Below, piece after piece: positions 1 through 35,138 of a DNA stretch of 64,000 nucleotides. Numbering within the stretch: position 1 is the first letter of the stretch; each line of letters opens with the position of its first letter. Under the pieces are notes generated by a model. That model made no database searches. It was not told where the DNA came from and saw nothing but the letters and a program-made list of their open reading frames with translations. The DNA is taken from the IMG/VR virus record IMGVR_UViG_2721755646_000011. One strand, 5' to 3'. The position numbers and the translations under genes were made by a program. The DNA comes from a virus (taxonomy: Duplodnaviria > Heunggongvirae > Uroviricota > Caudoviricetes).

Positions 1-1
1 C

Positions 2-183: not shown

Positions 184-259
184 ACCACCCATCAAGACAC
201 CGCACGGTGTTCTCAGCAAACAGTTCCGCTACCCGGCGTTAAGGGGAAATGAGGTCAGC

Positions 260-415: not shown

Positions 416-416
416 T

Positions 417-545: not shown

Positions 546-574
546 TAAGCGAAACAGCACCGCGAGGAATCAGT

Positions 575-1133: not shown

Positions 1134-1191
1134 TTTCTGGTGACGTTTGGCGGTATCAGTTTTACTCCGTGACTGCTCTGCCGCCCTTTTT
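1134..1191 (+). ncRNA. dicF: DicF small regulatory RNA (antisense regulator of ftsZ and other mRNAs)
   Basis: Sequence TTTCTGGTGACGTTTGGCGGTATCAGTTTTACTCCGTGACTGCTCTGCCGCCCTTTTT matches my recollection of E. coli DicF, ends in a GC hairpin plus T-run, and lies between ydfC and dicB. Confidence 0.7.
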
Positions 1192-1358
1192 AAAGTGAAT
1201 TTTGTGATGTGGTGAATGCGGCTGAGCGCACGCGGAACAGTTAAAGCTAAAAACAGCGTTATGGGTGATTCTGTATTCCGGCGTTAATTGTTAACTGGTT
1301 AACGTCACCTGGAGGCACCAGGCACCACATCACAAAATTCATTGTTGAGGACGCGATA

Positions 1359-1547
1359 ATGGAAACGTCACTACCAAACGTTAATACGTCTGAAGGGTGT
1401 TTTAATATTGGTATTCTGCTCAGTAACCGGGAGTTTACTGAAGACGCCATCAGGATGAGAAAATATGAGCCTTATCTTCTCAATGATAATTCCATACTCT
1501 CCAGAATTGCCCTTCTTGAACTTGGCATTTTCGGAGGGCAGCAGTGA
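1359..1547 (+). CDS. dicB: DicB cell-division inhibitor (62 aa)
   Basis: 62-aa product METSLPNVNTSEGCF... with the size and N-terminus of DicB; immediately after dicF; paralogue at 61100-61288. Confidence 0.7.
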   Translation: METSLPNVNTSEGCFNIGILLSNREFTEDAIRMRKYEPYLLNDNSILSRIALLELGIFGGQQ

Positions 1548-1732
1548 GTTCAGCGTTTGCACTGATGATGACGGTTTTTCTTATAACAGGTGAGCCACAG
1601 AATGTGATTACCGGAATTTATGCCAGTAAAGAATCCTGCCATCAGGCAAGAGACGAGCAAAAAATTTCCGGTGAATGTCTCCCGTTAAACAAAGTATCGC
1701 TGTACCTGAATAACGAAATACCGGCTGGATAA
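1544..1732 (+). CDS. ydfD: YdfD-like small protein
   Basis: 62-aa ORF overlapping the dicB stop by 4 nt, hydrophobic N-terminus; paralogue at 61285-61476. Confidence 0.55.
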   Translation: MSSAFALMMTVFLITGEPQNVITGIYASKESCHQARDEQKISGECLPLNKVSLYLNNEIPAG

Positions 1733-1824
1733 CCCGCCAGCCGTATTAACGCCATACCCGTTGATTAAGCATGCCAGCAATGGCAGGGATTCGTACAACC
1801 TTAAAATAGTTATGAGGTTTATCA

Positions 1825-4269: not shown

Positions 4270-4333
4270 TGTTCAACCCCGGTCGTTGCCCACCAGCTAT
4301 AGTGGCGGCGACCATGATTAGCGAACGACGCTC

Positions 4334-4582
4334 ATGGCAAGACTTATTCTGCTCACTGAGTGGGCAAAAGAGGAATTCAGTGAACCGGTCCCTACTCCGA
4401 GTACGTTAAGTAAATACGCTAAAGCCGGAATGATATTTCCTCTCCCCAAAAAAGTTGGAAGACGCTGGCGAGTGGATCCGCAAGCTCGCTTTGTCGGAAT
4501 GGTAAACAAGCCGGAGGTGATCGCCACAGATCACCCTGCTTTGAAGAGGATACTGGAAGATGGCGCGCCCGCGAAAATATAA
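4334..4582 (+). CDS. xis: excisionase-like protein
   Basis: 82-aa ORF directly upstream of, and overlapping, the integrase start; typical Xis position and size. Confidence 0.6.
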   Translation: MARLILLTEWAKEEFSEPVPTPSTLSKYAKAGMIFPLPKKVGRRWRVDPQARFVGMVNKPEVIATDHPALKRILEDGAPAKI

Positions 4583-5690
4583 AACCGATGTTCCGGGATT
4601 ATCTCCGTATTTTGACAAAAGAAATAACAAAGTTTACTGGCGTTACAGGCATCCCATAACAGGCAAAAATCACGGTCTCGGCAGTATTGACCAGAAACTG
4701 GCAGAAACTATTGCAGCAGAAGCGAACAGCCGTCTTGCCCGGCAGCAAATGGAACAAATGCTCAGTCTGCAGGAGAAAATTATTAGTGATACCGGCGGTT
4801 CATCAACCGTTACCATTTTTCTGAATAATTACAGAAAAATTCAACAGGAAAGATATGAAAACGGCGAGATCAAACTCAACACGCTGAAACAGAAAGCGGC
4901 CCCTCTCAGGGTATTTGATGAACGTTTTGGCACCAGACCGTTAGATGCCATAACCGTAAAAGATGTGGTATCAGTACTGGAAGAGTACAAGGCCAGAGGA
5001 CATAACAGAATGGGACAAATTTTCAGGAAAGTACTGATCGATGTTTTCCGGGAAGCTCAGCAAACGGGCGATGTCCCGCCAGGCTTTAACCCTGCAGAAT
5101 CTGCAAAAAAACCGCAGGTGCGGATATCAAGACAGCGACTGACTTTTGATGAGTGGATGATGATTTATAACGCAGCGGAAAAGGATGGTTACTTTTTACA
5201 GCGCGGTATGCTGCTGGCACTGATGACAGGCCAGCGCCTTTCAGATATTTGCAAAATGCAATTTTCGGATATCCGGGATGGTTATCTTCATGTCGAACAG
5301 CAAAAAACAGGAACCCGGATTGCCATCCCTCTGGCTCTGCGTTGCGATAAATTAAATCTCACCCTGGATGATGTGGTGTCATCCTGCCGCGATTGCGTTC
5401 TTAGTCCGTGGCTATTGCACCACCATCACGCGAAAGGGACAGCTAAGCGCGGCGGGATGGTTAAGCCAGCAACATTAACCGTTGCATTTAAAAAAGCCCG
5501 GGATTCTGTGGATTACAACTGGCGTGCTAATGGCACCCCACCCTCTTTCCATGAGCAGAGATCTTTATCAGAGCGATTGTTCAGAGAGCAGGGGGTTGAT
5601 ACCAAAATTTTGCTAGGCCATTCGAATCAAAAAATGATCGATATTTACAACGACGCACGCGGTAAGGAATGGAAAAAACTGGTCATTTGA
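4560..5690 (+). CDS. int: tyrosine-type phage integrase
   Basis: 376-aa ORF with C-terminal catalytic-domain motifs (RLSD ... HEQRS ... LLGHSN ... IYND) of lambda-family integrases. Confidence 0.9.
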   Translation: MARPRKYKTDVPGLSPYFDKRNNKVYWRYRHPITGKNHGLGSIDQKLAETIAAEANSRLARQQMEQMLSLQEKIISDTGGSSTVTIFLNNYRKIQQERYENGEIKLNTLKQKAAPLRVFDERFGTRPLDAITVKDVVSVLEEYKARGHNRMGQIFRKVLIDVFREAQQTGDVPPGFNPAESAKKPQVRISRQRLTFDEWMMIYNAAEKDGYFLQRGMLLALMTGQRLSDICKMQFSDIRDGYLHVEQQKTGTRIAIPLALRCDKLNLTLDDVVSSCRDCVLSPWLLHHHHAKGTAKRGGMVKPATLTVAFKKARDSVDYNWRANGTPPSFHEQRSLSERLFREQGVDTKILLGHSNQKMIDIYNDARGKEWKKLVI

Positions 5691-5696
5691 TGACCA

Positions 5697-5732
5697 GTTT
5701 TGCAGAGGGGTTTTGCAGAGGTTTTGCAGAGA
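5697..5732. repeat. three tandem GTTTTGCAGAG repeats just after int (candidate integrase arm-type sites in att)
   Basis: Direct repeats read in sequence; a GGTCA-n5-TGACC palindrome spans the int stop codon. Confidence 0.4.
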
Positions 5733-6989
5733 AAATTAAAAACGATATCCTGCGGAGAACATAAACACCCACGGATCCAGTCGTACCGAGTCTTTCACGG
5801 TAGTAACACCAGATTTATACTTAGCCGTGGTATCGATATCCATGTACCACACTGGTAGATTTTACAAAACTCAATAACATATTATATTTAAAGGAAAAAT
5901 ACAGAATTTACGATGCTTTTTTATACAGATCTCTCGTGTTTTTAACTGATTGATTTTGTTGAACTCTTTTTTTGTTTTGCAGGAGTTACTCCTCTTACCT
6001 TATTGTCCACTCGATGACCAACACATTCACAACCCAAACCAGAATATCCTATCTATGAAGCATGTATCCGCACGCAGATTAATTATGGTTTACATTGTTC
6101 TACCACAATAGTCGCATCCTAAATGGGTGCGGTTGAGGATCACCATCCTTGAAGAGGATGCCCGCCACTTTAACTGCATGACAGGGCTATTTAAACAATC
6201 ACTAAAAATCGCCCAAGAGCATTCTGTTTCTATAATGTATTCCAAGAGATTAAAAAATAATATCATACGTTATTCGGCAGAGTTCGTATGTACTACGGCG
6301 TCCCAACCATGTCCCAAAACAAAAATTTCTGCCCTATACACGTTCCAAAAAATTCAACAGCAAAGAGAGTCTGCTGACGAGTTGTTGATTCACTGATTAA
6401 TACGTAAAATTGATAACTGCTGGAAATCATACAATACTCGTACTTTCGAAAGTTCGCTAACCAGGTGCTACACGCGAGGTGTTACAGTTTTCTTTACGAT
6501 TTATCATTCAATCCTAATCCATGCATGACATGTGGTGCCTGTGGGGTGATCCTACCTACGTAATGTGGACACAGCCCTAATCAAGGTTCTGTTTTTCAAA
6601 ACAGTTCCGTGCTGAGACAGCCACAAGTACTGTGTCGGCACCACCGATTGTAATCACACTAGATCTAATTAAACACAGCCGTCTGCATTATTTCCCGACT
6701 CATAAAATATTAGCCGTAAATGCATTCGACTTTTAGTGAGTGGAAGAAACTTTCCGCCCTAGCATTATCGTAACAGCGCCCCTTTGCACTCATCCTGTCA
6801 TGCAGGTATGCCGCTTCAGAAGCGCCTGATAATGCGTTGAAATCAGGACGGTGGCTACTTGCTATTCAGTTCACGATACATCCCTTAAGGACCAGCGAAT
6901 AGCAATGAGTCACTTTATTATCAAGTTTGATGACCGCTTTGATGCTAACTTTTAATAAGAGTCTCTTCACACAAAATCGTGTACCGAGT

Positions 6990-7640
6990 CTACACTGAAT
7001 AACAATCACTCCTCACCGTAAAGTGACCGATACTGCAATCAAACTCACACTGCTCTCTGGCCACAAGCATTGATAATGTTATTGGCTCTCTGCTTAGTGG
7101 GTGATGCATCCCATCATTAATTATACGAGAAAGAGCCATTTCATCATATAAACTACATACTCTGGAACCTTCAGCATTTCTTAAAAAAACACCTCGTTGA
7201 GGAATTGCCAGCGTAATCGGGCACTGTAATGCTTCATCTATGTAAGACATTTCTTCAATATTAACTAAAAATGAACATGAATGTAATCGCCGCTGTAACA
7301 ATTCAATTCTGTTATCATTACTATGCATAAATTCAGAAATAACCTGCCCCATATATGTACTGAATACATCAAGAAATGAATTGCCTCCATTCAATTGATT
7401 TTCAACAGAATCAGCCAATCTAATGATATCGGCTAGTTCTGTATGGCTTAAACCCGAATATAGTTCCTCTTGAACAGGATCTACAATAAAAGCGTCCATA
7501 GCACTCTGATAGCGAACAGAAAACGATCTTTCTCCTATTGTGAGTCTTTCCATTTGATGATCTCTGGTCGCACGTTGTAAAACTTCAACATCTTGTGTTG
7601 ACAAGTAATTTCCAGAAGACAAATTAAATGAAAATGGCAT
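6990..7640 (-). CDS. nleG: NleG-family type III secreted effector (U-box E3 ubiquitin ligase family)
   Basis: 216-aa ORF with MPFSFNLSS N-terminus and conserved C-terminal CPITL ... HPLSREPIT U-box-like region. Confidence 0.8.
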   Translation of the reverse strand: MPFSFNLSSGNYLSTQDVEVLQRATRDHQMERLTIGERSFSVRYQSAMDAFIVDPVQEELYSGLSHTELADIIRLADSVENQLNGGNSFLDVFSTYMGQVISEFMHSNDNRIELLQRRLHSCSFLVNIEEMSYIDEALQCPITLAIPQRGVFLRNAEGSRVCSLYDEMALSRIINDGMHHPLSREPITLSMLVAREQCEFDCSIGHFTVRSDCYSV

Positions 7641-7860
7641 AATTTTATCCCTAAAGCATATATCTTACTTTTCGATAATTAACAAAAAGCCATCCTCCAC
7701 AGCAATACTCCATCAGAATAATTGTAGGATTATTTTAATCTAATTTATAAGCATAAAATATATACTCACTAAATAGCTGCGCAGAATAGTAGATCATTTA
7801 GAGGGAACTCAACCCGATTGTGCGATCTGATCAATCGCCAAATCAATACAAATCACCAAC

Positions 7861-8713
7861 CGGACTGAGCAATGTCGATCATACCACCAATTTCCCGTGA
7901 CGAACGACGCCTAATACAGAAAGCCATCCATAAAAGGCTGACAGCCATGCTGATGCTGCACCGGGGCGACCGTGTCAGCGACGTTGCCCGCACACTATGC
8001 TGCGCCCGTTCCTCTGTTGGGCGCTGGATTAACTAGTTCACACAGTCGGGTGTTGAGGGACTGAAATCATTACCTGCCGAGCGAGCCCGCCGCTGGCCGT
8101 TTGCGCATATCTACACACTATTACGTGAACAGGTAAAATATTCACTCGCGACTTTGGCTACAATTATTCACGCTGGAGTACAGAACTGCTGACAATAAAA
8201 ATCAATGAGATAACCGGCTGCCTGTTACATGCTGGAACCATTCGCCGCTGGTTGTCGTCTGTGGGGCTTGTGTGGCGAAGGGCTGCGCCAACTCTACGTA
8301 TCCGTGCCCCGCCTAAAGATAAAAAGATGGCAACAATCCATAACGCACTGGACGAATGCAGCACAGAGCATCCGGTCTTTTATGAAGATGAAGTATTTAT
8401 CCATCTTAATCCCAAAATCGGTGCGGACTGGAAACTGCTCGGGAAGCAAAAACGAGGGGTCACGCCGGAACAAAATGAAAAATATTCTCTGGACGTAGCG
8501 CTGCACAGCGGGACAGGTTAAGTCAGCTGTGTGGGCGCCAACAGCAAAAGTTCGGCGCTGTTCATCAGACTGCTGAAGCGGCTTAAAGCTACATACTGTC
8601 GGACGAAAACCATCACGCTGCTCGAGGACAACTACATTATCCACAAAGGCCGGGAAACCCAGCGCTGGCTGAAGGATAAACCGAAGTGCAGAGTCATTTA
8701 TCAGCCGGTTTAA
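7861..8713 (+). pseudogene. IS630-family transposase remnant (in-frame stop and frameshifts)
   Basis: Fragments MSIIPPISRDERRLIQKAIHKRL ..., 8252-8521 and 8531-8713 read as pieces of one transposase in three frames. Confidence 0.55.
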
Positions 8714-9146
8714 TCTCCATGGGTGAATCATTTTGAATAGCTATGGCAGATACTTCACGCCACAATAACGCGTAATCATCAGTGCCGCTCAATGTGGCAA
8801 CTATTGAAAAAGTTCGCCATTTTATGGAATCCGTCAGTCCATTCCCCGAAGGCAAACATGGGCTGGCAAAAATGTGCGATATTAGGCGCAGCTATTTAGT
8901 TATTCCGTCATTTCTCCCGCCCGTGTAAACACTACTGAATCTTGTCGTTGTGACAAAGCTATAAATAGTCAATCACAGCACGTTTCTGCGTACGACGCGC
9001 TGCAATTTTCTTTACGATTTATAACTGTACAGGTGAACTATGAGTTATTTGGATACATACATATAGTGTAACGCCTGTTGTATATTTTACTCATATCTTT
9101 TTACAGGATGAAAACCAATGATACTGGCGCATAGCCTCCTCCAACC

Positions 9147-9737
9147 TTACCCCTGTATAACACGACTCATATAACCTGGGATTTCATTTCGTAGTTTTAC
9201 AATATCAACACCCGGGGCGATATGTTTCTGATAAAACTTGTCTGCAAGCACGTTTGCTATGTAATCTGTTGTACTGTTTTTTACAGCTCGGCTCATACCA
9301 TCGCAAAGAGCATCCATTTTTTTGCCAAAAGAAGCATTTCCTATTATTATATGATTAATAGAACTTTGTGCCGCTTTAACATCAAGAGTTAGTTCAAACT
9401 CCTTACTTACAAGAGAAAAGACCATTTTCCTCTCTTCAGAAGAAATTTTTGCATTTTTTTGAAGGCAGCAATTATCAATCTCTTGGTTGATAACCCTTGA
9501 CGGATATACTGTCCGTTCATCACTTACCCATCCATGAATATCTTTAGTACTCTGCCTGCTTACCGTCTCCAGTATACAGCCGCTAAATTTGTTAACATTA
9601 AAGCGGATAGAGCGCTCTCCCATTGAACACTTCACGACCTCATCATTCTTCCCACGGATGGTGCCCCGGAAAGAATTATCTTTATGATAACTGATACCAA
9701 AAGAGCTGAAGGACACACCTGTCGCATTTACTGGCAT
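9147..9737 (-). CDS. espM: EspM-family WxxxE type III effector (RhoA-activating GEF mimic)
   Basis: 196-aa ORF with WxxxE motif at W70/E74 (HGWVSDE), the size and motif position of EspM1/EspM2. Confidence 0.75.
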   Translation of the reverse strand: MPVNATGVSFSSFGISYHKDNSFRGTIRGKNDEVVKCSMGERSIRFNVNKFSGCILETVSRQSTKDIHGWVSDERTVYPSRVINQEIDNCCLQKNAKISSEERKMVFSLVSKEFELTLDVKAAQSSINHIIIGNASFGKKMDALCDGMSRAVKNSTTDYIANVLADKFYQKHIAPGVDIVKLRNEIPGYMSRVIQG

Positions 9738-9920
9738 AACAAATCCTTTTCATTAAAATTTGCTTACAAAAATTGTATACAATCATTTTAATTAAAAAAA
9801 TACATGTGTAAATAGCATTCGTTCAAAATTTAATTTTTTGTTTGAATCCTATCACATATTTAGTATCTTGACTCCTGTCACCAATATGGTTCAATAACAT
9901 AGACTAAAGAGGGAGAAAAT

Positions 9921-10568
9921 ATGCCTGTCATATTAAACTTTTCGAGTGAAAGAGTATTGTCTGAAAGTGAACTGGAGGCTTTACGTCATGTCGGAAGAGT
10001 TAGTCAGAGTGAACAGCTTGTTGTGAGAGGCCGCACTATGAGACTTCATCATATTTCATTTATGGACAGTTTTAGCGTGGAACCGGTTTCCGGCGGACTG
10101 TTGGATCGCCTTAGTGCAAGAGGGCATCGCCTTCTCGCAGAAAATCTGGAGATACAGCTTAACAGAGGCCATACTTTTTTGCAGGCATTCCGTTTATATA
10201 TGGAACAGAGCCGTGCAACCCCATGTACGCGCCAAAACGTCAGTAGTGCAATACAAAACAAAATTAACTCTCATGCATTTACTGTTAGTCATCAAGACTT
10301 TTCCTGTCATGAACAACACCTGAATTGCCCGATAACATTATGCATTCCTGAAACTGGTGTTTTTGTCAGAAATGCAAAAAACTCAGAAATATGTTCATTA
10401 TATGACCACAATGCACTCACTGAACTTATCCGACGCAACGCTCCACACCCTCTCAGCCGTGAACCCTTTGTTCCGGAAATGATTGTCAGCAAAGATGAAT
10501 GCCATTTTAATCTAATAGAACAATATTTTTGCATATTAGCCACACAAAATATATGCACTAGAATTTGA
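9921..10568 (+). CDS. nleG: NleG-family type III secreted effector
   Basis: 215-aa ORF, MPVILNFSSE N-terminus, C-terminal CPITL ... HPLSREPF U-box-like motifs. Confidence 0.8.
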   Translation: MPVILNFSSERVLSESELEALRHVGRVSQSEQLVVRGRTMRLHHISFMDSFSVEPVSGGLLDRLSARGHRLLAENLEIQLNRGHTFLQAFRLYMEQSRATPCTRQNVSSAIQNKINSHAFTVSHQDFSCHEQHLNCPITLCIPETGVFVRNAKNSEICSLYDHNALTELIRRNAPHPLSREPFVPEMIVSKDECHFNLIEQYFCILATQNICTRI

Positions 10569-10749
10569 CTGTATGGTTCGATTTAAATGTTGCAAAATTA
10601 ATTTTACTAGTTATTGCCATCTATTTCATACTCCCTAATTCTTGATACAATCTGTCTGTCAAAATAGTAGATTAGATCGAACTTATATTACAGCTATTTA
10701 GTTTCTAAAATGGAATTTTTAACGTTTTATACTTCACATTACAATCTGT

Positions 10750-11170
10750 ACCATAAGCCTCCTCAGCGAGGTTGCCTGAATACCCTGTCGTGCCCATTTT
10801 TCCATCGGACGCAGTTGTCTGCTCTCTCGAACTACTGGCAATAAAAATCAACCAGACAGCTTGATGTCCGTTACATGCAGGACTAATCACGATTGGTTAC
10901 CGTTTACAAAACTTGCGTAACATTGGAGGAGAACGAATAATATTCTCTAGCTGGTACGCGTTCCATAGCGAAACGGGCAAGGTCCAACAGCAAGAGCTGA
11001 AACTCAGGGGGATTTATCAGTCGATTTATTCGCCATGGATGAATCACGCTGTACGGTTATGGTAGCTCTTAGCGACAAGGCATAATCATCAGTACACCAA
11101 TGTAACAACCGTTGAAAAAGACTCATTATTTTATGAACCAGCCATCCCATTTCCAGAGTGGTAAATATGA
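10750..11170. mobile_element. IS630-like terminal remnant (no intact transposase)
   Basis: About 70% nucleotide similarity to the 3' end and flank of the IS630 remnant at 8700-8900. Confidence 0.35.
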
Positions 11171-11278
11171 TTTGTTAAAGTGTAACAGTACTCTGCGTAG
11201 CCTTTTTAGATTCATAGTTTAATGTTTCTAAATACATTAAATTGCACTATAAGAGAAAGACATAATGTGAGGATAAAA

Positions 11279-22636: not shown

Positions 22637-23236
22637 TCAGAAACGGTATCCGATACCAACAATAAATGCATCCGATCGCCAGTCGCCACTACCGGAACCT
22701 TCATAAGCAAGGTCAATGGTCACGGATTCGGTCGGGTTAAACTGCACGCCAGCCCCCCACGCCAGAGACGTGTTGCTGTGGCGACCGTCATCACTTCCGG
22801 TCAGCACATCGTGCGTTTTCCCCTTGTTGTCAGTTACGCGGAGATAATCCCCGTAGAAAGTCGACACACGGCTGTAAGCCACACCCGCCATCGCATACGC
22901 GCTGAACCATTCATTCACGCGTACAGACGGCCCCGCCATCACGCTGAACCAGCGGTTACGCACGGAATCTTCATGCCAGCGGGTATCGCTGTAGCGCGTT
23001 TTTTGCTCATCCTCAGCATTGGCATAACTGAAGGACGTAATCAGCCCCAGCGCGTCCATAAACTCATAACGGTATTTCACGTTAATCCCGTTCAGATCAT
23101 CACTACCGGGAACGTTCGTCGAGGCATGGAGATACCCCGCGCTCAGCGTGGACTGATGTTCTGCTGCACTCGCTGGCGTAGCAGCGGCGACCTGCCAGAC
23201 TACTGCGGACAAAATAACAGCACATAATTTACGCAT
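22637..23236 (-). CDS. lom: Lom/Ail-family outer-membrane protein
   Basis: 199-aa ORF with signal peptide and C-terminal beta-barrel signature ending GIGYRF; between J and the tail fibre as in lambda. Confidence 0.85.
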   Translation of the reverse strand: MRKLCAVILSAVVWQVAAATPASAAEHQSTLSAGYLHASTNVPGSDDLNGINVKYRYEFMDALGLITSFSYANAEDEQKTRYSDTRWHEDSVRNRWFSVMAGPSVRVNEWFSAYAMAGVAYSRVSTFYGDYLRVTDNKGKTHDVLTGSDDGRHSNTSLAWGAGVQFNPTESVTIDLAYEGSGSGDWRSDAFIVGIGYRF

Positions 23237-23303
23237 AATTACCTCTCGCTTTTCTGCAATAAAAAAGGCGCCATTTCTGGCGCCCGTATCTGGGTTATAA
23301 AAT

Positions 23304-26300
23304 TCAGCTAATCGTGATGCCTGCAGTGGCTTTCTTCATCACCACAACCAGCAAATCGCTGATACTTGCTGTGGGATACCAGTTATTTACCAGCCATGCT
23401 GACACCGAAAACTCCAGTGTCATGTGACCGTGACCGGCAGGCATATCAATAACACCACTGTAAATCAGCGTATTATCCAGCGCGGTACGGTTATAAATTT
23501 CAGCACCGTTTTTCCGCACTATCAGACGGCATGAGGAGTAAATATCAGTATGCTCTTTCTCATGTTTAGCGCCGCTGAATGCCACCGCCGGAATAACAAT
23601 CTGCCGGTCAAACGGCTGATCGTCATAAACCCTGACGGTAATGGTTCCTGATGGCCACCGCTCCGGTGCACGGGAGTCCCGGGGGAAAGCTTTGCCCACT
23701 GTTTTAACGAGATCGCCTTCAATCTGGTTCGCGGACAATTTTCCCAGAACCCGACAGTTCTCGTTAATCGTGACGTTGTTGAGCGTCCCGGAGTTCGCAT
23801 TCACGTTACCGCTGATATCGGCATTTTTCGCCGTCAGCCGCCCGTCCGGTGTCAGGGAAAATGCCGGAGGATTACCGCCGCTGGTAATGGTGGGAGCCGT
23901 CAGATATTTCAGGAACACTTCATTCATAAATATCTGATCGCCCTGACCAACAAACATCGGCTTTGTGTTGCCATTCGCAGGATTAATCATCGCAATCCTG
24001 TCTGCCGCCAGCAGCACCTGACTCTGCATTCCTGCTGGCGTATTCTCAATACCGGCACCGATACCCGCAATATAAAGGCGTCCGTCCTGCATCTGCTGCA
24101 GCTTCACTGCCCACATGCTGTTCAGGTTATTATTTGTATCAACCTGAACTTTCTGTATCTGCTGGATTGCCGCACTCTGATTTTCCAGTTTTTTATTGAC
24201 GGTCTGCGTGATTTCATTGCTGACATTCGTAATGGACGTCCTGATTTCAGCCAGGTCCGGCGCAAGCTGACCGTTATCAATCTGCGTCCACAGCTCCTGG
24301 GCCAGATGTGTTTTCCCGATTTCTCCTTTGAAAAAATCCAGGTAACCTTCCGCATCATCGCTCGCCCGACCGACAGCCTCCACGAATGCCGATTTGCCAA
24401 CAGTATTCACACTGCGGATATAAAAATAATAATCATGGCCCGGTTTGATATTGATACTGGCAGCTATCCAGTACAGCGCCGAGCCAAGATAGCGGGCTGC
24501 GGTTTCAACCTGCCTGATATCCGCAATCCGCTTTTCCGAGAACCAGAACTCAAACTGTACCGTCGGGTCATAAACGGCAAGATGCGGCGTGGCGGTTATC
24601 TGAAAATAGCCCGGCGTCAGCTCAATCCGCGACGGTGCTGCCGGTGCGGCAATCCGGAAGGTGGTGGTGGCAGGTTCACCCTGCTGGCCATAGCTGTTTA
24701 TCGCCCGCACCGTCAGGGTGTATTCCCCGAGCGGCAGGCCGCTGAAACGGTGCTCCGTGTCTGCGGTGATGGCGGTGGTCACCAGTCTGGCATCCGTTCC
24801 CTTACCACTGGTCAGGCGCAGACTGAAGCGCACGCCCTTCACCACCCGCGGCGTGTCCCATTTAGCCTGCGCCAGATACTGGCCGTCAGCTGCACTCACC
24901 TCCACCGTCAGGTGCTGTACTGCCGGTGGGATGACGCTGTTCAGGGAACCTGACTGCGGCTCAAAGCGGGCACCGTTATCCACGATGGCTTCTTTTTCCG
25001 GTACGTGCTGCACCGCCGTGATGGCAAAGGTGCCGTCCGTGTTTTCCCGGACGGAGACACAGCGGAACAGGCGACGGCGCAGTGACGGCAGGGAGAGTCC
25101 CCACACCCCGTATGTCTCCACACCATCAGGCAGGGTACTGACCTGTATCCGGTCCGGCGCGGGGTGTGCGGTGATGTCCACACTCACCGGCTTACCGCTG
25201 CCGTTAATCAGGTTCACCGTGGCGGCACCGGTCTCCGGCAGTGTCACCTCACGGTCCAGCGTCAGGGTGCGGCTGGCGGCATCGATGGACAGGACACGTC
25301 CGCCGGTCATGGTCCCGGCATAGTCGTTATCACAGATTTCAATAATGTCACCGGGTGTGTGACGCAGCCCCTGTGACCCGAGCGTGAAATCCACCGTCTG
25401 CGTTTCCAGCAGTCCGGTCTTTATCACCCACAGCCCGGCACGGTGGGCCTGACCGCGACTGGTGCAGCCGAACGCATCCATCTTCAGCAGGTTGCGTCCG
25501 TAGCGCAGTATGGCTTCCGGGTCTTCCACCAGTTCCGTGGAGGTCTGCCAGCCGTTCTGCGGGTCGGTGTAATTCACCTCCACCGCCGTGTGGCGGTCCT
25601 TCAGGGCGCTGAAGCTGTAGCGAAACCCCACGCCGTTATCATCCACCACCACATCACTGCTGGTGTAGGCCACACCACATCTGACGGACGGTCCTGCACA
25701 AACGTCAGCGTCTGCCCGTTCCATACCGGCATACAGCGCATCGCCGAGCAGAAATCACTGAGAACGTCCCACGCCTTACGCTGTTGTGACAGGTACGCAT
25801 TGAAAGTCATCCGCGGCTCTGTGCCCCCGAAACCATCCGGGACCGTCTGGTCGCAGTACTGCGCAATGGCATACAGCGCCCACTTGTCCACATCCGCCGC
25901 CCCCAGGCGTTTTCCCATTCCGTAGCGCGGGTGGGTCAGCATGTCCCACAGGCACCAGGCAGGGTTGTTGCTGTATGCCGGTTTCAGGCTGCCGTCCCAG
26001 ATGCCGCTGTACGTGCGTTTTTCCGGGTCATAGTTTGACGGTACCTGGATGATGCGACCGCGGATATGGTAGTTCACCGTCATCTGCTGACCGCCAAACT
26101 GCTCCGCATCCACCTGCAGCCCCACAATCGCCGTGTTCGGGTAGCACTGTTTCACATCGATGATTTCGGTGTATGACGACCAGAGCGTCTTATTCTGCAG
26201 CTGGTCCGAGGTGCTGTCCGCTGTCTCCCGGACCATCCGGATGTTAAAGGGCCGCTCAGGCAGATTATCCAGAATCACCGACGCCAGAAACTGCGAGGTG

Positions 26301-26776
26301 GTCTTGCCGTTAATGGTGACATCCTTTTCCGTCACCCAGTTACCGTTACGCTGCAACTGAATCAGCAGTCGGACAGAAGAGTGATTACGGTCGCCCTTTG
26401 AGGTGGTCTCCAACAGTGACTGCACCCCGAAGGTGACCCGCAGGCGGTCAATGTTCGCGGACGTAATGGTGCGCGTCACCGGTTTTGCCTTCGTCACTTC
26501 CACGCCCAGTCCGGTTTCAGCTCCGGAGGACTCAAAGCCTTCCGGTGGTGTCTGCTCCTGCTCCCCGGCACGCCAGACCGCGGTCACACCGTGTATCACG
26601 GGATTGCCGTCCGTGTCCGTCAGTGGGGTTTTGTTCACCAGAATACTCTGCAGTCCCTTCACCGGACCTTCTATCGGTCCCTCACCAATCGCATCAATCA
26701 CACTCATCATCTGCGTGGATTTGAGATTATCCTTCGCCTCACGAGGCGTGTGTGCCTTACCGCCACCTTTTCCCAT
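23304..26776 (-). pseudogene. host-specificity protein J (central tail fibre), split by a 1-nt frameshift
   Basis: ORFs 25601-26776 (N-terminal part) and 23304-25724 (C-terminal part) are contiguous J sequence in two frames; shift near 25690 at GTGGTGTGG/CCTACACC. Confidence 0.8.
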
Positions 26777-27118
26777 ACAGCCTTCCCCTGAATAAATTAA
26801 CCGCCACTTGCCATTCCGTACAGAAGTCGGATATCCTTCGCCCGAAAAGCATGAAACACATTTCTGCCATGCTAAAGAGAACCCCCGGTATCAGCAGATA
26901 CCGGGGTTTTCTTTCATGCCCACCGATAATCCTGTTGGTTAAAACCGGTAATGGCATAAAAATTCTGAATATCTTCACATTTTCACACACTGACTGTGGC
27001 GCTTATAATTTCGCTGCGTTAGTGTTTTTTTGCCCGAGTAACAAAAACAACTCCTTAACATTGATCTTCATTTGTCTGTCCCCGCAGCTCCGCGATCACT
27101 GCGGGATTTTTTTATGTT

Positions 27119-27799
27119 TTATCCCTGTCGCCCGACAACCACGACCGTTCCGCCCCCGCCTTCATCACGGGTGCTGATGTCCTGGGATATACGGCGGGAG
27201 CCAACCAGCATTTCCCCGTAAGGCACCGGCATCGGGTTCCCCTGGGCAATCATGTTATCCAGCGAGGAAAAGTACGTGTTCTGTCTGCCGTTATCCGTTG
27301 CGCGGTAATCCGGTGTTTTTGCCTTCGGGGCCAGCATCTGGGCCACACCGCCCAGAATCATGCTGGCTCCAAGTGAAAACAGCATCGTGGTGGCAGAAAA
27401 ACCACCGGCTGCCAGGGCTGAACCCCATAACGCCATTGATGCCCCGGCAGTGAAGAAAGAGCCCACGATGGCTGCCGCCCCCAGCACAATCTGCAGTCCA
27501 CCCTTTCCGGCCCCGGCCAGTCGCGGCACAATATGGATGACCGTTCCCTCACCCAGCTGTTCGTGAAGACGGGCGTACACCGCCTCCGGTGCCGTGTCAT
27601 AACCGGCAATACGTATCTGGTACCAGCCTTCGTTCATCTGACGGCGAAAGCCCGGCACCTGTAACGACAGCGCCCGGATGGCTTCCGCTGCCGTGTTCAC
27701 ATACAGGCTGAGGCGGCGGCCAAATCGTTGTAAATCCCCGTGAAGGCAGATACGTGCCAGTGGCGGTGACGCCAGGCTGAATGCGTTCGTCGTTGCCAT
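27119..27799 (-). CDS. tail assembly protein I
   Basis: 226-aa ORF with gpI-like sequence and hydrophobic C-terminal half, between K and J. Confidence 0.75.
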   Translation of the reverse strand: MATTNAFSLASPPLARICLHGDLQRFGRRLSLYVNTAAEAIRALSLQVPGFRRQMNEGWYQIRIAGYDTAPEAVYARLHEQLGEGTVIHIVPRLAGAGKGGLQIVLGAAAIVGSFFTAGASMALWGSALAAGGFSATTMLFSLGASMILGGVAQMLAPKAKTPDYRATDNGRQNTYFSSLDNMIAQGNPMPVPYGEMLVGSRRISQDISTRDEGGGGTVVVVGRQG

Positions 27800-28440
27800 T
27801 TTTCGGAATACCTCTCCCGTTTACTCAGTTGTTCAGGCAGATGGTGAAGCAGTTCACCGTTGCCGCAGTATATGGCGGCATGATTGGCCACCGATGCGCC
27901 AAAGCAGCACAGCAGGATATCGCCAGGCTGTGCGGAAGGCAGGGAAATCCTGTAAAAACCAGTCGCCTCCATATTGTCCAGGTACAGGTTCTGACCATTG
28001 CGCCACCAGTCATCCTCACGCTCAAAATCCGGCATATCAGTCCCCGCCAGATGATAAGCATCCCGGAACAGCGTGTAACAGTCCGTCACCCCGTGCTCAA
28101 AGCGCCGTCCTGTCAGATGTGGCACACAGCGGAATTTGTGAATGTCACCCCGGCAGACCAGCCACCAGGGCAGTGCGCTTTTTATCTGCAGCCGCCGGTC
28201 GGCCTCGCTCAGCCAGGGCAGCCCACCGGGATGACTGTGGACCAGTGCCACAATCTCCCCCTGCATCTCTGCCCGCAGCCAGTCTTCCGGTGCGATACGA
28301 AAATACGCCTCCGGCTCTGCAGAAATATTCACACAAGGGATATACCACTCCCCCTCCGGCGTGCTTATCACGAAGCCGCACGACTCCGCAGGCGCACACC
28401 GCCGGGCATGCGCCAGAATCGCTGATTCAGTCTGTGTCAT
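27697..28440 (-). CDS. tail assembly protein K (JAB/MPN plus NlpC/P60 domains)
   Basis: Start MTQTESAILAHARRC ... with HSHP metal-binding motif of the JAB domain; track ORF extends spuriously upstream. Confidence 0.75.
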   Translation of the reverse strand: MTQTESAILAHARRCAPAESCGFVISTPEGEWYIPCVNISAEPEAYFRIAPEDWLRAEMQGEIVALVHSHPGGLPWLSEADRRLQIKSALPWWLVCRGDIHKFRCVPHLTGRRFEHGVTDCYTLFRDAYHLAGTDMPDFEREDDWWRNGQNLYLDNMEATGFYRISLPSAQPGDILLCCFGASVANHAAIYCGNGELLHHLPEQLSKRERYSEKWQRRTHSAWRHRHWHVSAFTGIYNDLAAASACM

Positions 28441-28450
28441 AAACCGGGAT

Positions 28451-29149
28451 TTACTGCGAAAGTTTATTAATGGAAAGGAAACCGCCAAAATTAGCCACCA
28501 TGCTGCGCATCTCACACCCGCGCATGCACTTGCTGCATCTGTCCTTACGGATATCCGTGGTGGGGTTGTCGAACTCATCCGCCACTGCCCCGCCCGTGTA
28601 ACCACACTCATCAGAGCGGTAGGTCCACATACAGGTATTCGCCAGCATAATGCGACCGGGAAACAGCGCTCCGTCCGTCTCCGTCGGTGTTGCCAGCACA
28701 AACGAGGCTGTCATGGCCGTCAGCTCTGACATCTGCTCCACCACCCAGCGGTCTCTCAGCTCCTGCTCCGGGTCCGCTTCCGGATTGCCCGCCACAAAAT
28801 TCACCGCATCCAGAAAACGGGCATACACCCGGCGGCGGACCACCGTGGCACCCACCAGGCTCTGCAGGTCCTCCGCCATTCCGGTGACCAGACCGAACAG
28901 ATTCGACACCGTCAGCGACGGGCGGGCACTGCTGCCCTTCCCGTTCATCTCAAAGCCACTGCCGTCAATCGGGTATACCTGATATTGCCGCCCCTGCCAG
29001 GTGACCGCCTCCCCTTTTTCATTCAGCTCATTACAGAAAAAATACCGCTCACCGCCCTGCACCGTCAGGTCAATTTCCCAGAGCACCACCCGCGGTGACT
29101 GCTCTGATTTAACCGACTCGTTCAGACTTTCTTCATGAATGTCCTGCAT
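28451..29149 (-). CDS. minor tail protein L
   Basis: 232-aa ORF, gpL-like, four Cys near the C-terminus. Confidence 0.75.
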   Translation of the reverse strand: MQDIHEESLNESVKSEQSPRVVLWEIDLTVQGGERYFFCNELNEKGEAVTWQGRQYQVYPIDGSGFEMNGKGSSARPSLTVSNLFGLVTGMAEDLQSLVGATVVRRRVYARFLDAVNFVAGNPEADPEQELRDRWVVEQMSELTAMTASFVLATPTETDGALFPGRIMLANTCMWTYRSDECGYTGGAVADEFDNPTTDIRKDRCSKCMRGCEMRSMVANFGGFLSINKLSQ

Positions 29150-29490
29150 CAGTTCACCACCTGCTCAATCGTACAGCTGAAATCACTGTACCGGGCGTTA
29201 TCCGTGACGCTCCACTCCCGGCACACAACCCTCACCGTCCGGTTATGTTTCGGCGGTCGCCACAAAAAGGCACGGTAACCACCATGCCAGGATAAAAATT
29301 CATCCAGCCAGCGCCGGGTTGACTCATCCGTCACCCGGAACACCGCCTGAAACGTCTTCAGTTGAGGATTCAGCCCTGTGGGGCGGCGCTGTTCATAACC
29401 GTCACCAAACCGCACCCTCACCACCGACGGCTTCTCACTCACCTGCATCCCTTCACGCGGGACCAGATGCAGCGTTTTTATCTCAGCCAC
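29149..29490 (-). CDS. minor tail protein M
   Basis: 113-aa ORF, gpM-like, overlaps the L start codon. Confidence 0.75.
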   Translation of the reverse strand: MAEIKTLHLVPREGMQVSEKPSVVRVRFGDGYEQRRPTGLNPQLKTFQAVFRVTDESTRRWLDEFLSWHGGYRAFLWRPPKHNRTVRVVCREWSVTDNARYSDFSCTIEQVVN

Positions 29491-32400
29491 TCAGCATTCC
29501 TCCGTCACGTCGCATGGACAGCATCACCGCCTGCACCCGCTGGTCAATCAGCTGCACAAGACTGCCTGCCGCCTCCGGCCCTATCTGTCCGTTAGCCCCG
29601 TCATTCTGAATGGCGATGTGGTAGACCGGGGAATACACCAGACCAGCACTGCCGTTCATACTGCCCACGGCGCGTACGCCCAGCGAGCCATCCGCCGCCC
29701 GGGTCAGGGGCATAATAGCTTCAGGTCCGGCTTCCCCCATCAGCCCGGCCCCTTTTGCAAACGCAAAGTACGTGGGCGTGTCCACAATGCTGTTGCTGTA
29801 CGCGCTCAGGTTTGCCGAGGTATACACGCCGCCTTTTGCATTGGCCACCGCTCCGCCCAGCCAGTCACCAATGCTGCCGAGAAATCCTCCCGCACCGGAC
29901 ATACCGTTTGCCGCCGTCTTAATTCCGTTGACAATCGCGGCATTCATAAGAACTTTTGATATTTCCTGCAGCACTGATGAGGCCCAGCTGCGCCATTCCA
30001 CTTTATTTCCGTTCAGCATCTCCGTGATGTTATTCACCATCCCTGAGATACCCTCCGTCGCCAGCTGTGCTGCCTGTGAGGCGTAATCGGACGCATTATC
30101 CACCCAGTTACTGAATCCCTCCTGCAGCCCTTTCTGCCAGTCCGCACGCTGCACATCCGATTCGGCATAAAAGACTGCCTGGTCCTTAAGGCGTTCGCTC
30201 AGATACTGCGCGTTCTGTGCCAGAGCCTGTCTGTAAAAATCCTCACTGATATCCCCGGTCTGATACTGAGACTGAAGGTCCGCATCCTTCTGGCGGAAGC
30301 TGTCGCGGATCTGCTGCAACTCCCGCATGCGTTCTCTGGCTCGCTCCCCCTGCCCGTACCCCAGCAGTTCAGCATCATTCGACGCACGCGCAGCCGCATT
30401 CTCATTCTTCAGTGTCTCTTCCCGGGATCGCAACTGTTCCCGGATTTTTTGCTGGTCAATCAGGGTCGCGTTACGCAGCAGTTCCTGCTTCTGCATCTCC
30501 GTCAGGGTTTTCAGTTCACCCAGCGCTGTCTGGTATTTCAGCTTCGCCAGCTCTGTATTCTGCCCCACCAGTGCCAGTTGCTCTTTCTGCTGCTTCAGCA
30601 GCCGGGAAAAACTGTCTTCCGCTTTTTCCGTCTCTGATTTTCCACCCCGGGATTTGGGTTTATTCGCCTCGTTATTGCGCCAGGCTTCCAGGGCATTACT
30701 GATATAACGTTGTCTCGCCTCCTGATACGGATCACCCACAAAACCGAGGTCATCCGCCGCATACCCCAGTCGGACACGCTCTTTTTCTTCCCCTTTCAGT
30801 CTGGACAGGGCCAGCTCACGCTCTGTTTTTGTCAGGGCACTCTGCTGTTTATCATCCAGGGTGGCCTGCGGCAGCCGTAACGGTACATTCACCAGTCCCT
30901 GACGCTGCTGAAGCAGTTCATTCCCCAGCCCCAGCAGACGGTTGAATTCCGTATGCTGACCGTTCATAACCAGCATGGACTGGTACACCTTATTCTGCTC
31001 TGCGCCTGCTGAGCCCGGCAAGCACATCCTGAATGGACTGCGCTTTTTCCTGCATCTGTGCCAGACGGGACTGCTCAACGGCAAGCTGCTCTGTTGCCTG
31101 AGAAAGCCCTTCCGTTACGGTCTTCACCGATGTCAGATGGTTTATCATGAATCCGTCACCGGTCGTCCAGCCCGGGTTCGCCAGAACATACTGATATCCT
31201 GCGATTTTTTCCTGCAGGGATTTCACCCGACTGGCCTGTTCATCAATCAGCCGGTTCTGCTCTGTCAGCGCCGCCCGTGTTCGTCCTTCATTATCTGAGG
31301 CTTCAGGCAGAGACATTGACGGCGTTTTATGCGCGATTTCATCTATCGTCAGTGCATACTGGCGCGCAGACTCCCTGGCCTGCTCCTGATTCTGGTACAG
31401 CGTGTACCATGCTGCAGCCCCCAGCATCACCAGTCCGGGTACGCCACCAACCAGCCCCAGCGCACCGCTCATCAGACGTGAGCCCACCGCCGTTGTACTG
31501 TTCAGCGCATTCTGGGCGGCGGTTCTGGCAGCAATATTTCTGTTCAGGCGTTCCTGTGTGGCCGCCAGACGGGCCTCTGCTGCAATCTGCATCTCCGTCC
31601 CGCGGGCTGCCGCCACGGCCTGCTGAGCACGGTACACGGCTGCCCTTGCCCGCGCCGTGGCAATCTGCGTTCCCCTGAACTGTGCTTCCGCCAGTGCAAC
31701 TTCATTACGTGCAGCCGTCACAAGTCCTGCCGTGGCAGACATCGCTCCGGAGGCCATATTGCCAAAGTAACGTGCAACCCCGACGGCAACCAGCGCGCCC
31801 ACGGCTGTTGCCACATTATCAATCTGTCCGGCAACACCGTTCAGCATGCCGGAGAGCGTTTTTGTCACCCCGCTGGCCTCATTCGCACCGCCCACCCAGG
31901 CCATAAAGGCGTTTTCCACCTTCGTGATACTACTGGAAACCGTTTCCGGCATGGCCGCATATTCATCACGTAATATCCCCAGCTGGCTGATTAACGCGGG
32001 GACCACTTTATCCGCTGTCAGTTTTCCGTCATCCGCCATTGCCTTCAGATCTTTACGGGCCACGCCCATACCCGCAGCCAGTGCACGTACGATCCGGTCA
32101 CCACTTTCATTGACCGAATTAAATTCCTCACCGCGCAACACACCCTGTGCCAGCGCCTGGCTGAACTGGGTGATCACCGAACCCGCCTCAGCCGTACTGG
32201 CACCGGAGATTTTCAGCCCCGTGGAAATGGCCTCCGTCACCTTCAGTACATCACCGGCACTGTAACCATATTCACGCATCGAGGCAGCCGAACGGGCAAA
32301 CAGGGCCGCATTATCCGAAAATGCCGTGCCTGTCCGCTGGCTGATATCCATCAGCACTTTCTGTGATGACGAAAATTCATCGGATGACTGTGATGCCTGT

Positions 32401-32696
32401 TTCAGACGGGCATTTACGGAACTCCACTCATCCGCCAGTGAAATCAGGTGTCCGGAGGCAAAGGCACCGGCAAATGCGCCAGCCATTCCGACAGCAGAAC
32501 CGCGAATTTCCGTCAACTGGCTGTTCAGTTCTGCCAGGGCACGTCGCTGCTCCCGGGCTGCCGCAGCGGCCTGACGCCCGCCATTCTGCAGGGTCCGGTA
32601 ATATTCACTGCCCATACGGGACGCCCGCTGGATCTCCGACTGGAATGACTGTGAATTTGCCGAAATTTTGATAATCAGTTCACGTAACGTCGCCAT
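29483..32696 (-). pseudogene. tail tape measure protein, split into two frames
   Basis: ORFs 30990-32696 (568 aa) and 29483-31084 (533 aa) are both Ala/Gln-rich coiled-coil tape-measure sequence and overlap by about 95 nt in different frames. Confidence 0.7.
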
Positions 32697-32699
32697 TCA

Positions 32700-33700
32700 C
32701 CTTTCTCCGGGCAAAAAAAAACCTGCCACAGCAGGTTTTCATCATTATTTATGACATTGCTGCAGGCTACGCGTCTTCCAGCGCCGCAAACGGATCCACC
32801 TCCGGCTTATCCTCATCCTCGCCCCAGCAGAGCATGGCGTCCTTCAGTGCAACATTCATCCCTGTGCCCCGAAAACCGCTTTCACGATCTGTGCATTACG
32901 GATATCCCGCGCTCATCACCCAGCGGGATACCCTGTCGAACTCCATCCACATCATCGCCTCGCTCGCATCAGGCTGTCCGCAGTTCGGATAGGTCGCCCC
33001 GACAGCGCAATCATCAGCGAATTCCGGCGGCTACTTCTGGCCGACTCGCATCACGATCAGCTGCCATACGCGCACCGGCTGTCCGCATCGACTGCAACGG
33101 CATTCCCATGACGGCACGTTCACAGGTCGCCCAGCAGCGCAGTCCGCAGCAAACGCGACATTTCCTGCGCATTCGGCACCTTCACCGTTTTCACTGACGG
33201 AACCGGCAGTCGGCCAGCGCCAGTGTCAGTCGCCATAACTATCCGCGCACCATTCCGTTACTGACACGCATCAGAGGTAATGCTTCGCGGCTTTCTGCGA
33301 CCACCCGCAGGTATAGCCCTTATCACCTGACGCAGCTTACTGCACAGTGTCCAGGCTGACAGCTCTATCCACGCTGCATTCTCATTCCGGACGCGTTTAT
33401 CGCCCCACGTCTGACCACGCTGATCGACTTTGCATGCCATGCGCACCACCGGTATTCACGGTAAGTGCTCTCCAGATTTTTCACAAACGCCAGCGGTACC
33501 ATAGGACACCGGTTTACCCTTCAGGCGAAGTGAAAACGTTGCAGCACCACGCGTTGTCCATGACCAGGTGTCTGACGCACTTCCGCCAGGCTTAAAGCCC
33601 TTACCGGACGGAAACTGCACTTAAACGCACCGGTACACCGTGTCTTCTCAGATACCGGCTACCATCGCAGGCGGCCTGAGGCGTTGGGCCTGATTCAGAT
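32700..33700 (-). other. degraded region where major tail / tail chaperone (V, G, G-T) genes are expected; no intact ORF
   Basis: About 1 kb between tape measure and the U-like gene with stops in every minus-strand frame; only short fragments such as MNVALKDAMLCWGEDEDKPEVDPFAALEDA. Confidence 0.45.
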
Positions 33701-33705
33701 AAAAA

Positions 33706-33936
33706 TTACCCCGACATGGAAATCTCGGACGACGCCCCCAGACCGTTGATGTTCTCCTGCTCTGTGGAGCAGAGCGTGGTCACATCAATATCCTGTTTCT
33801 GACCGGCGGTGAACTGGACTTCCTTGATGGTGCAGTCCAGGCGCAGATATTCCGCCTTCTCCATGGTTTCAGCAGTCGCCGGGGCAGATGAAATCATCAC
33901 CTGCGTCAGCTGTGAACGTTCATACAAAGCAGACAT
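33706..33936 (-). CDS. hypothetical 76-aa protein (possibly a truncated major tail protein)
   Basis: AGGAGG RBS plus ATG directly after a GC hairpin with T-run; too short for an intact major tail protein. Confidence 0.35.
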   Translation of the reverse strand: MSALYERSQLTQVMISSAPATAETMEKAEYLRLDCTIKEVQFTAGQKQDIDVTTLCSTEQENINGLGASSEISMSG

Positions 33937-33994
33937 TCTGCCTCCTGATAATAAAAAACCCGCACGCGGCGGGTTATGGGTTCTGTTGAAAAAA

Positions 33995-34339
33995 TTACAC
34001 CGTGACCTGAAACTCCAGGGTTGCACGGTAACAGCGGTTTTCCGGAATATAGTCCTGCATTTCACTGACGGATCCCGGGGCCAGCAGCATTATGGCTTCA
34101 CGGGCGTCCTGACGTATCTGACGCGCCTGCGTCACAGTCCCGGCATAAACGTCTATCTGCACCGACACTGAGGACTCCGCCTGCCCGCCCATCACGTCCG
34201 CCGACACCGATGAAATCAGGCTGAAAACCACCCACGGAAGCGCCACCGACGGCCTGCCATCCAGCAGGGGGACCACATACGGGTACACCTGCCCGCCGGC
34301 AAGATGCGCCAGATGAGGATACAAATCCGCCTCCGTCAT
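33995..34339 (-). CDS. tail terminator (gpU-like) protein
   Basis: 114-aa ORF with DGRP motif and pattern resembling lambda gpU; position before the tail tube region. Confidence 0.5.
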   Translation of the reverse strand: MTEADLYPHLAHLAGGQVYPYVVPLLDGRPSVALPWVVFSLISSVSADVMGGQAESSVSVQIDVYAGTVTQARQIRQDAREAIMLLAPGSVSEMQDYIPENRCYRATLEFQVTV

Positions 34340-34782
34340 CGTCTCAGTACCTCATCAATGGCCCGGTTCATCCGAGCAATCGCCACCTGTGCCGCCTGTT
34401 CACTGCGCACATCAAATGCCGGGCGCACAAACGGGTGCGGTGGCATATTCACGGTCCCCATTTCCACAAACCGCCAGTAGAAAGCATTGCGCGGGTTATC
34501 CGCCTTCATGGTGTTATCGCTGTTACCGGTGTCCGGATTAACACCCCGGATATGCACACCGGATTCCATCCCGCCATCGCGGGAGCACCGGGAAAGGACC
34601 ACCACATTGCGGCGAAGTTTTCCCCTGCGTACCGGTGCCCGTGACACCACTTCTTCTTTCAGCACATTCGCACCCGCACGGGTTGCCTCACGCAGCACCC
34701 GGTTATTTTCCGCACCACTCAGAAGCTGCAAATCGCGGCTGATGTCCTCCAGCCCCGAAAAATCCAGCAGGGTTTCGATCAT
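34336..34782 (-). CDS. tail completion protein (HK97 gp10 / gpZ-like)
   Basis: 148-aa ORF, overlapping starts/stops with neighbours, typical head-tail module position. Confidence 0.45.
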   Translation of the reverse strand: MIETLLDFSGLEDISRDLQLLSGAENNRVLREATRAGANVLKEEVVSRAPVRRGKLRRNVVVLSRCSRDGGMESGVHIRGVNPDTGNSDNTMKADNPRNAFYWRFVEMGTVNMPPHPFVRPAFDVRSEQAAQVAIARMNRAIDEVLRR

Positions 34783-35129
34783 TTTTCCCCTCCCAGCCGA
34801 CAGAGAATTTCCAGACGCCCGCCGGTTGCATCCGGAACCGGGACCCCGACGACATTCAGGACATGGTCACGCCAGGGACCACTCAGCACATGAAGTCGTG
34901 ACGCCGCCGTGATTTCACGACCAGACTGACCGCGTACCCAGATGCGGATTTCCGCCTGCGCCATTTCCGCACCGGACTGCATCCGCTCCCGGCTGCTCCT
35001 GCCCCGGATATCCGCATGAATTTTCCCGCATGACACCCATTCTTCCGTCATTTCTCCGGCAGCATTACGGGTTAACACCGGGTTCAGAACACTGATCATC
35101 TGTGTCAGACGACCTGCAGATATTGCCAT
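34779..35129 (-). CDS. head-tail adaptor / head closure protein
   Basis: 116-aa ORF in the head-tail joining gene block. Confidence 0.45.
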   Translation of the reverse strand: MAISAGRLTQMISVLNPVLTRNAAGEMTEEWVSCGKIHADIRGRSSRERMQSGAEMAQAEIRIWVRGQSGREITAASRLHVLSGPWRDHVLNVVGVPVPDATGGRLEILCRLGGEK

Positions 35130-35138
35130 TCCCCCTCC

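Follow-up and report, generated by a model that had tools for sequence, protein, structure and literature searches.

A genuine tail-tip frameshift beside probable consensus-error patches in the nleA prophage of Escherichia coli O157:H7 strain 644-PT8

The sequence analyzed here, called the window throughout, is the whole 64,000-nucleotide (nt) stretch of the viral record IMGVR_UViG_2721755646_000011, and our subject is the tail module of the prophage that it carries. An original prediction, made from the letters alone, had described this module as carrying multiple inactivating lesions. The window is E. coli O157:H7 strain 644-PT8, accession CP015831, at about positions 3,258,164-3,322,163. 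For at least nine genes, the 644-PT8 coordinates (Suppl. Table 1 in Cowley et al., 2016; PMC5320650) equal the coordinates of open reading frames (ORFs) in the window plus 3,258,163, with matches at nleG (6990), espM1 (9147), nleA (18548), paa (53948), DicA (58639) and a hypothetical gene (59923). Since this agreement is kept across all the damaged patches described below, the window must be CP015831. The closest complete genomes are likewise E. coli O157:H7, and that of NCCP 13892 is collinear with the window starting at base 1.

Between 20 and 64 kb lies, on the minus strand, an Sp9/CP-933P-like lambdoid prophage that carries nleA and is located at ompW. Its genes follow the order tail fibre, lom, J, I, K, L, M, tape measure (H), T, G and V, and continue with the head-tail joining genes, portal, capsid, terminase, lysis and an early region with paa. 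The assignment of the tail module to the lambdoid Sp9/CP-933P type was confirmed by the collinear series V-G-T-H-M-L-K-I-J-lom-tail fibre with matching families; Pfam matches were obtained for J (5 domains), I, K, L, M, H and gp17, and the module is collinear gene for gene with annotated O157 prophages. Integration at ompW and the nleA cargo were confirmed by an ompW 3' fragment at 5736-5861 and by nleA at 18548-19873, while in the collinear genome of NCCP 13892 a full ompW is found beyond the int end. The features on which the argument turns are the following.

23304..26776, minus strand: gpJ (tail tip / host specificity) pseudogene with a 1-nt deletion
29483..32696, minus strand: tape measure gene (H-equivalent), the strain 350 allele (3243 nt) minus 29 nt
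31003..31012: private lesion 1, a 1-nt deletion at 31003 and a 28-nt deletion at 31012, 9 nt apart
32749..33936, minus strand: what remains of T (tail assembly protein), G (chaperone) and V (major tail subunit), recovered as tblastn fragments in three frames
32764..33709: private lesion 2, an indel-dense patch with 111 indel events and 28 substitutions
35462..37894, minus strand: portal gene with a 1-nt deletion at ~35577 and private insertions
35890..35947: private lesion 3, ten single C/G insertions in 58 nt at the edge of the portal tandem repeat
63109..63997: private lesion 4, 12 indel events and 0 substitutions (vs NCCP 13892) in the prophage RecE-type exonuclease gene

The J gene is divided between two minus-strand ORFs, at 25601-26776 (391 amino acids, aa) and 23304-25724 (806 aa), and the Pfam J domains are distributed over both. 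Alignment to intact J showed the window to lack one base at ~25667/25668 (J nt ~1109), where GGCC[C/G]TAC has become GGCCTAC, and adding 1 base back restored one 1157-aa ORF with no internal stop. The 1-nt frameshift that had been predicted near 25690 thus does exist, with the deletion ~22 nt away at ~25667, and it indeed falls outside a homopolymer, the site being a C run of 2-3 nt and not a long one. Resequenced EDL933, NCCP 13892 and strain 350 have the same gap, which neither the intact J genes nor the J of Sakai Sp9 show. An exact 61-mer spanning the deletion was recovered from 245 complete-genome records and the version with the extra base from 54 others, while the 391-aa N-terminal fragment was found on 829 contigs, short-read assemblies among them. 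RefSeq annotates J in related genomes as "gpJ ... frameshifted". A genuine pseudogene would be expected to show a single repairable indel and the same lesion across sequencing platforms, and J shows both. The sharing of this allele by independently sequenced genomes argues that the J deletion is a genuine, lineage-wide and clonally inherited pseudogene lesion, which arose once and has been passed down through much of the O157:H7 lineage. That a defective O157 prophage carries J in frameshifted form is no new finding, and the frameshift is annotated.

The tape measure gene is also divided, in agreement with the split into two frames predicted around 30990-31084, and the underlying events are the 1-nt and 28-nt deletions of lesion 1. 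The two minus-strand ORFs are located at 30990-32696 (568 aa) and 29483-31084 (533 aa), and the Pfam HK97 tape-measure profile is broken at positions 168/179, between them. In relatives the homologous genes are intact and encode 1080 aa; compared with every reference allele, long or short, 29 nt are missing from the window. The complete-genome search set comprised 5,426 genomes, including that of the sister isolate 180-PT54 (NZ_CP015832) and excluding NZ_CP015831, and the 1+28-nt deletion occurred in 0/5,426 of them. Every best match to window 30900-31130 came in two pieces, spanning 260 nt as opposed to 231 nt. Among ~15 billion proteins the 568-aa truncated product was found on one contig only, of 5,831,209 bp. 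This deletion is likely to be an assembly artefact, that is, a consensus or join error.

A natural length polymorphism is also present in this gene. A 162-nt in-frame segment (31050-31215), flanked by the direct repeat TTTTTCCTGCAGGGATTTCAC, occurs in the long (3243-nt) tape measure alleles only and not in the short (3081-nt) ones. The deletion was considered as an instance of this polymorphism and rejected, given that the polymorphism lies ~43 nt further on and that the 29 nt are present in both allele types.

In the neighbouring kilobase, where the major tail and chaperone genes had been expected, no intact ORF exists, as had been predicted; the segment consists of indel-scrambled T, G and V, whose only in-frame remainder is V residues 1-78 (33936-33703). 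The intact counterparts lie at 32779-34180 of the reference locus L010. The patch comprises 87 deletions (254 nt), 24 insertions (40 nt) and 28 substitutions, meaning that 139 of the ~183 differences between the window and its closest reference genomes fall within 946 of the 64,000 nt (binomial tail ~1e-212). Event density climbs from 32764, reaches a plateau or peak at ~33000-33400 and declines by 33709. Relative to strain 350, the flanks hold 2 substitutions (31013-32763) and 0 differences (33710-35886). Strain 350 (UK), NCCP 13892 (Korea) and 180-PT54 (UK) exhibit 0 mutual differences over the 1275-nt V/G/T segment, and the best identity found for window 32700-33760 among the 5,426 genomes was 85.4%. 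In natural alleles V, G and T are intact and length differences amount to just 4-9 nt. A mixture of paralogous prophage alleles was considered as the source of the patch and rejected: 460 of the 495 differing columns are invariant among four reference alleles, so that a divergent allele can be excluded as well. It is almost certainly an assembly artefact, as far as comparison of sequences can tell. The gene 644_03347 (3,291,283-3,291,399, window 33120-33236), given as unique to PT8, falls inside this patch.

The head and packaging genes, which had been taken as intact, are affected as well. The portal ORF is cut to 670 aa, compared with 859 aa in the intact form (EDL933, Sakai Sp9), and the gene contains both a shared and a private lesion. 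The 1-nt deletion at ~35577, near the 3' end, touches about the last 36 codons only; strain 350 and NCCP 13892 share it, the intact EDL933 alleles lack it, and RefSeq carries the annotation "phage portal protein, frameshifted" on strain 350, NCCP 13892 and 180-PT54. This deletion appears to be real and shared. The truncation at 670 aa is caused by the ten private insertions at 35890-35947, as seen relative to 180-PT54, and the 670-aa product was again found on that one contig only. The gene also carries a 162-bp in-frame tandem repeat (35939-36367) with 2.6 copies in the window and in 180-PT54, and with one more copy in strain 350 and NCCP 13892. A candidate deletion of ~157 nt at the portal patch was rejected, as comparison with 180-PT54 resolves it into a 162-bp repeat copy difference plus the 10 private insertions. 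In the exonuclease gene, three insertions of one base each and nine deletion events, 20 nt in total, leave a truncated 542-aa ORF (61569-63197), whose product is likewise confined to that contig; this patch may continue past the window end. The private portal patch and the exonuclease patch would, with nearly the same certainty as the V/G/T patch, be artefacts.

The history of the record is relevant here. According to Cowley et al. (2016; PMC5320650), PacBio sequencing of 644-PT8 gave two contigs, finishing relied on a MinION/Canu 1.1 assembly together with an OpGen optical map, and a 200-kb contig was "inserted twice" by hand on that map. The deposited record is described as that of a MinION-sequenced strain, and 180-PT54 is presented as a linked-outbreak sister, 3 core single-nucleotide polymorphisms away, with an estimated divergence of ~1 year (PMC5320650). 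At the 180-PT54 locus used for comparison (L012), the tape measure gene, T, G and V are all intact, and outside the patches this genome differs from window 33.7-46.2 kb by 2 substitutions and 1 indel. Over window 20000-31012 the identity with strain 350 is 99.97%, and outside the patches the window differs from its best references by only a handful of bases.

Gene decay would be expected to leave lesions that are common to relatives and that follow a natural mutation spectrum, in which substitutions are no rarer than indels and are scattered along the locus. Those in H and V/G/T occur in 0/5,426 complete genomes and not in 180-PT54, and the V/G/T patch amounts to 111 indel events against 28 substitutions, with flanks showing 0-2 differences. 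Artefacts, for their part, would be private, clustered and indel-dominated at invariant positions, as these lesions are, and would follow from an error-prone method or manual finishing, both of which appear in the history of CP015831. More than 100 indels in 1 kb cannot accumulate in ~1 year, and on this ground the patches are rated artefacts; in the same way, private lesions, an intact sister and a hand-finished PacBio/MinION record together lead us to regard the lesions in H and T/G/V as artefactual. Overall, it is very likely that the J lesion is biological and that the tape measure, T/G/V, portal and exonuclease patches are consensus errors of the deposited record. The bad patches would be short segments of multi-copy prophage DNA in which the long-read consensus was poor or contigs had been joined by hand, and we infer that they represent contig ends, joins or filler.

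A number of points weigh against this interpretation. The artefact status is derived by comparison with other genomes. Most of the window is >99.97% accurate, unlike an unpolished 2015 MinION assembly, and the bad patches could originate from PacBio contig ends, from MinION filler or from manual edits. Moreover, the homologous segment of 180-PT54 belongs to a differently arranged prophage mosaic and is a close proxy rather than the same locus; the nleA prophage is not present at the collinear coordinate of 180-PT54. Finally, the tape measure lesion consists of two events only, and a single real complex deletion is possible there.

The opposite view, that all lesions are real and that the element is a heavily decayed, tail-less cryptic prophage with independent hits in J, H, V, G and T, has in its favour that the ORF disruptions are present in the deposited sequence, that the J and portal frameshifts are genuine at this locus and that many defects are known in O157 prophages (PMC2669165). 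It would, however, have to accommodate ~111 indel events within 946 nt, accompanied by hardly any substitutions and bordered by 11 kb on the left and 2.2 kb on the right that match other strains, as well as an identical intact segment in the sister, ~1 year apart, and in two unrelated strains. Furthermore, the patch alleles occur in no other genome or protein set, and similar patches strike the unrelated portal and exonuclease genes of the same record. We consider this view very unlikely. A variant in which the patches at 31003-31012, 32764-33709, 35890-35947 and 63109-63997 are real products of localised indel-generating repair, acting on prophage DNA in the recombination behind the 200-kb inverted duplication, is extremely unlikely.

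An intermediate possibility is that the V/G/T, portal and exonuclease patches are artefacts and the 29-nt tape measure deletion is a real mutation private to 644-PT8, which might have originated, for example, in the prophage-prophage recombination behind the 200-kb inverted duplication. Recombination between prophages P7 and P8 has been reported for 644-PT8 (PMC5320650), the tape measure lesion is compact (two events within 10 nt) and the other patches diffuse, and to the left of 31012 the window shows 59 substitutions relative to the 180-PT54 allele, the right side being nearly identical. Nevertheless, strain 350 carries the same left and right alleles uninterrupted, with 2 substitutions and the 29 nt present, so that no recombination scar needs to be assumed. 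Microhomology was not found beside the tape measure deletion, its product is a singleton and the record contains other local errors; this possibility thus seems unlikely. As for expression, programmed −1 frameshifting is established for the tail chaperone G/GT of lambdoid phages, and by analogy J and H might still be expressed full-length through programmed or tolerated recoding, an idea for which this precedent and the retention of the J lesion in hundreds of genomes could be cited. However, GGCCTAC at J is no slippery heptamer and a +1 correction would be required; intact J alleles with just one extra base coexist in sibling prophages, Sakai Sp9 included, and clonal descent accounts for the conservation of the lesion. 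At H, the 29 nt lost include 9-10 codons of a conserved domain. The probability of recoding appears negligible.

With a genuine J lesion and probable consensus errors elsewhere in the tail module, the prediction of a tail-defective prophage stands through the J frameshift and falls for H and V/G/T, whose lesions are private to one record. The claim of multiple inactivating tail lesions is not upheld, as the split of the tape measure gene and the V/G/T scramble consist of private indels that are not found in 180-PT54. Recovery of intact ORFs for J and the tape measure gene on resequencing had been named as the outcome that would overturn the prediction; through 180-PT54 this has in effect been seen for H and for V/G/T, and not for J.

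The remaining features of the tail module and of the region upstream of the tail fibre end are listed below; genes I, K, L and M (27119..29490) are collinear with the annotated intact genes of L010.

27119-27700, minus strand: tail gene I, intact; Pfam Lambda_tail_I
27697-28440, minus strand: tail gene K, intact; Pfam Prok-JAB+NLPC_P60
28451-29149, minus strand: tail gene L, intact; Pfam Phage_tail_L
29149-29490, minus strand: tail gene M, intact; Pfam Phage_min_tail
6990-20790: type III secretion system effector island with nleG (6990-7640), espM1 (9147-9737), a further nleG (9921-10568), ISEc8 (11.9-14.2 kb), nleF, nleH1-2, a degenerate integrase and nleA (18548-19873)
20214-20788: frameshifted nleG-like gene, present in other strains too

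Several genes of the effector island were given as "unique" to 644-PT8 relative to 180-PT54 by Cowley et al. (PMC5320650). At the beginning of the window (1-5861) the ompW site holds two prophages in tandem: the end of a second lambdoid prophage, with its exonuclease, xis and int genes, adjoins the 126-nt ompW 3' fragment (5736-5861), and the nleA prophage comes next. In 180-PT54 the same int runs straight into a full ompW and yciC, while in resequenced EDL933 the junction at window ~5734 differs, with ompW'/yciE instead of int. That EDL933 genome (NZ_CP008957.1; 19227-29239 of locus L009) also has, at its nleA prophage, a block of head and tail genes that is duplicated and in which many genes are labelled "frameshifted"; this, too, may result from faulty long-read assembly, here of a reference genome.

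Relative to NCCP 13892, two substitution-rich tracts were observed, at 854-1500 (~37 substitutions) and at 30000-31000 (~30). The former is identical to 57_142493 and ATCC 43889 and the latter to strain 350; both represent ordinary recombinational mosaicism between prophages and not error. Lone single-base deletions, apparently intergenic, were also seen relative to NCCP 13892 at 42602 and at ~19.9 kb, the one at 42602 relative to 180-PT54 as well, and are probably residual homopolymer errors.

Among known systems, the nearest is Sp9 of strain Sakai, the equivalent of the EDL933 nleA prophage CP-933P. Sp9 is part of a "defective prophage pool" (Asadulghani et al., 2009; PMC2669165); spontaneous excision of Sp9 occurs, and its DNA is packaged in spite of the morphogenetic defects, apparently via proteins of sibling prophages (PMC2669165). 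Sp9 and the window share the ompW site, the cargo of nleG, espM1, nleF, nleH1-2, nleA, ISEc8 and paa, an HK97-like head module and the tail order V-G-T-H-M-L-...-J-lom-stf. They are 98-99% similar over most of their length, and both have some defective morphogenetic genes. Sp9, in contrast, lacks K and I and has a truncated L and an intact J; its tape measure allele is the short one (3081 nt) and its portal is annotated as intact. In the window L, K and I are intact, H is the long allele, and J and the portal gene are frameshifted. The mosaic of the window is common to strain 350, NCCP 13892 and the EDL933 locus at 2.29 Mb. The tail module of phage lambda (V, G/GT, H, M, L, K, I, J, lom, stf) resembles that of the window in gene order and in the Pfam families of J, I, K, L, M and the C-terminal part of H. 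Unlike lambda, the window has HK97-like head and head-tail joining genes (gp10-family, gp17 tail completion) and HK97_TLTM/TMP_3 domains in the tape measure.

The patches themselves resemble early PacBio RS II and MinION R7 errors, which are small indels with few substitutions, clustered, found in multi-copy prophage DNA and productive of spurious frameshifted genes. Such errors arise at low-coverage contig ends and in repeats; as the rest of the window is essentially free of errors, those found here must be local (joins, ends or filler) rather than spread over the genome.

What the result offers is a quality flag for one public record. The local error patches in this public "complete" genome produce false pseudogenes as well as at least one gene wrongly called "strain-unique" (644_03347), and scans based on sequence only take such patches for gene decay; it was the comparison with a sister isolate that told the one true tail lesion from the false ones. 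The biological weight is small, as the defective lambdoid prophages of O157:H7 are well documented and J is already a RefSeq pseudogene. The prophage of the window alone does not encode a full-length J, and by analogy with the Sakai prophages, mobilisation of such a J-defective prophage would depend on sibling prophages to supply tail parts.

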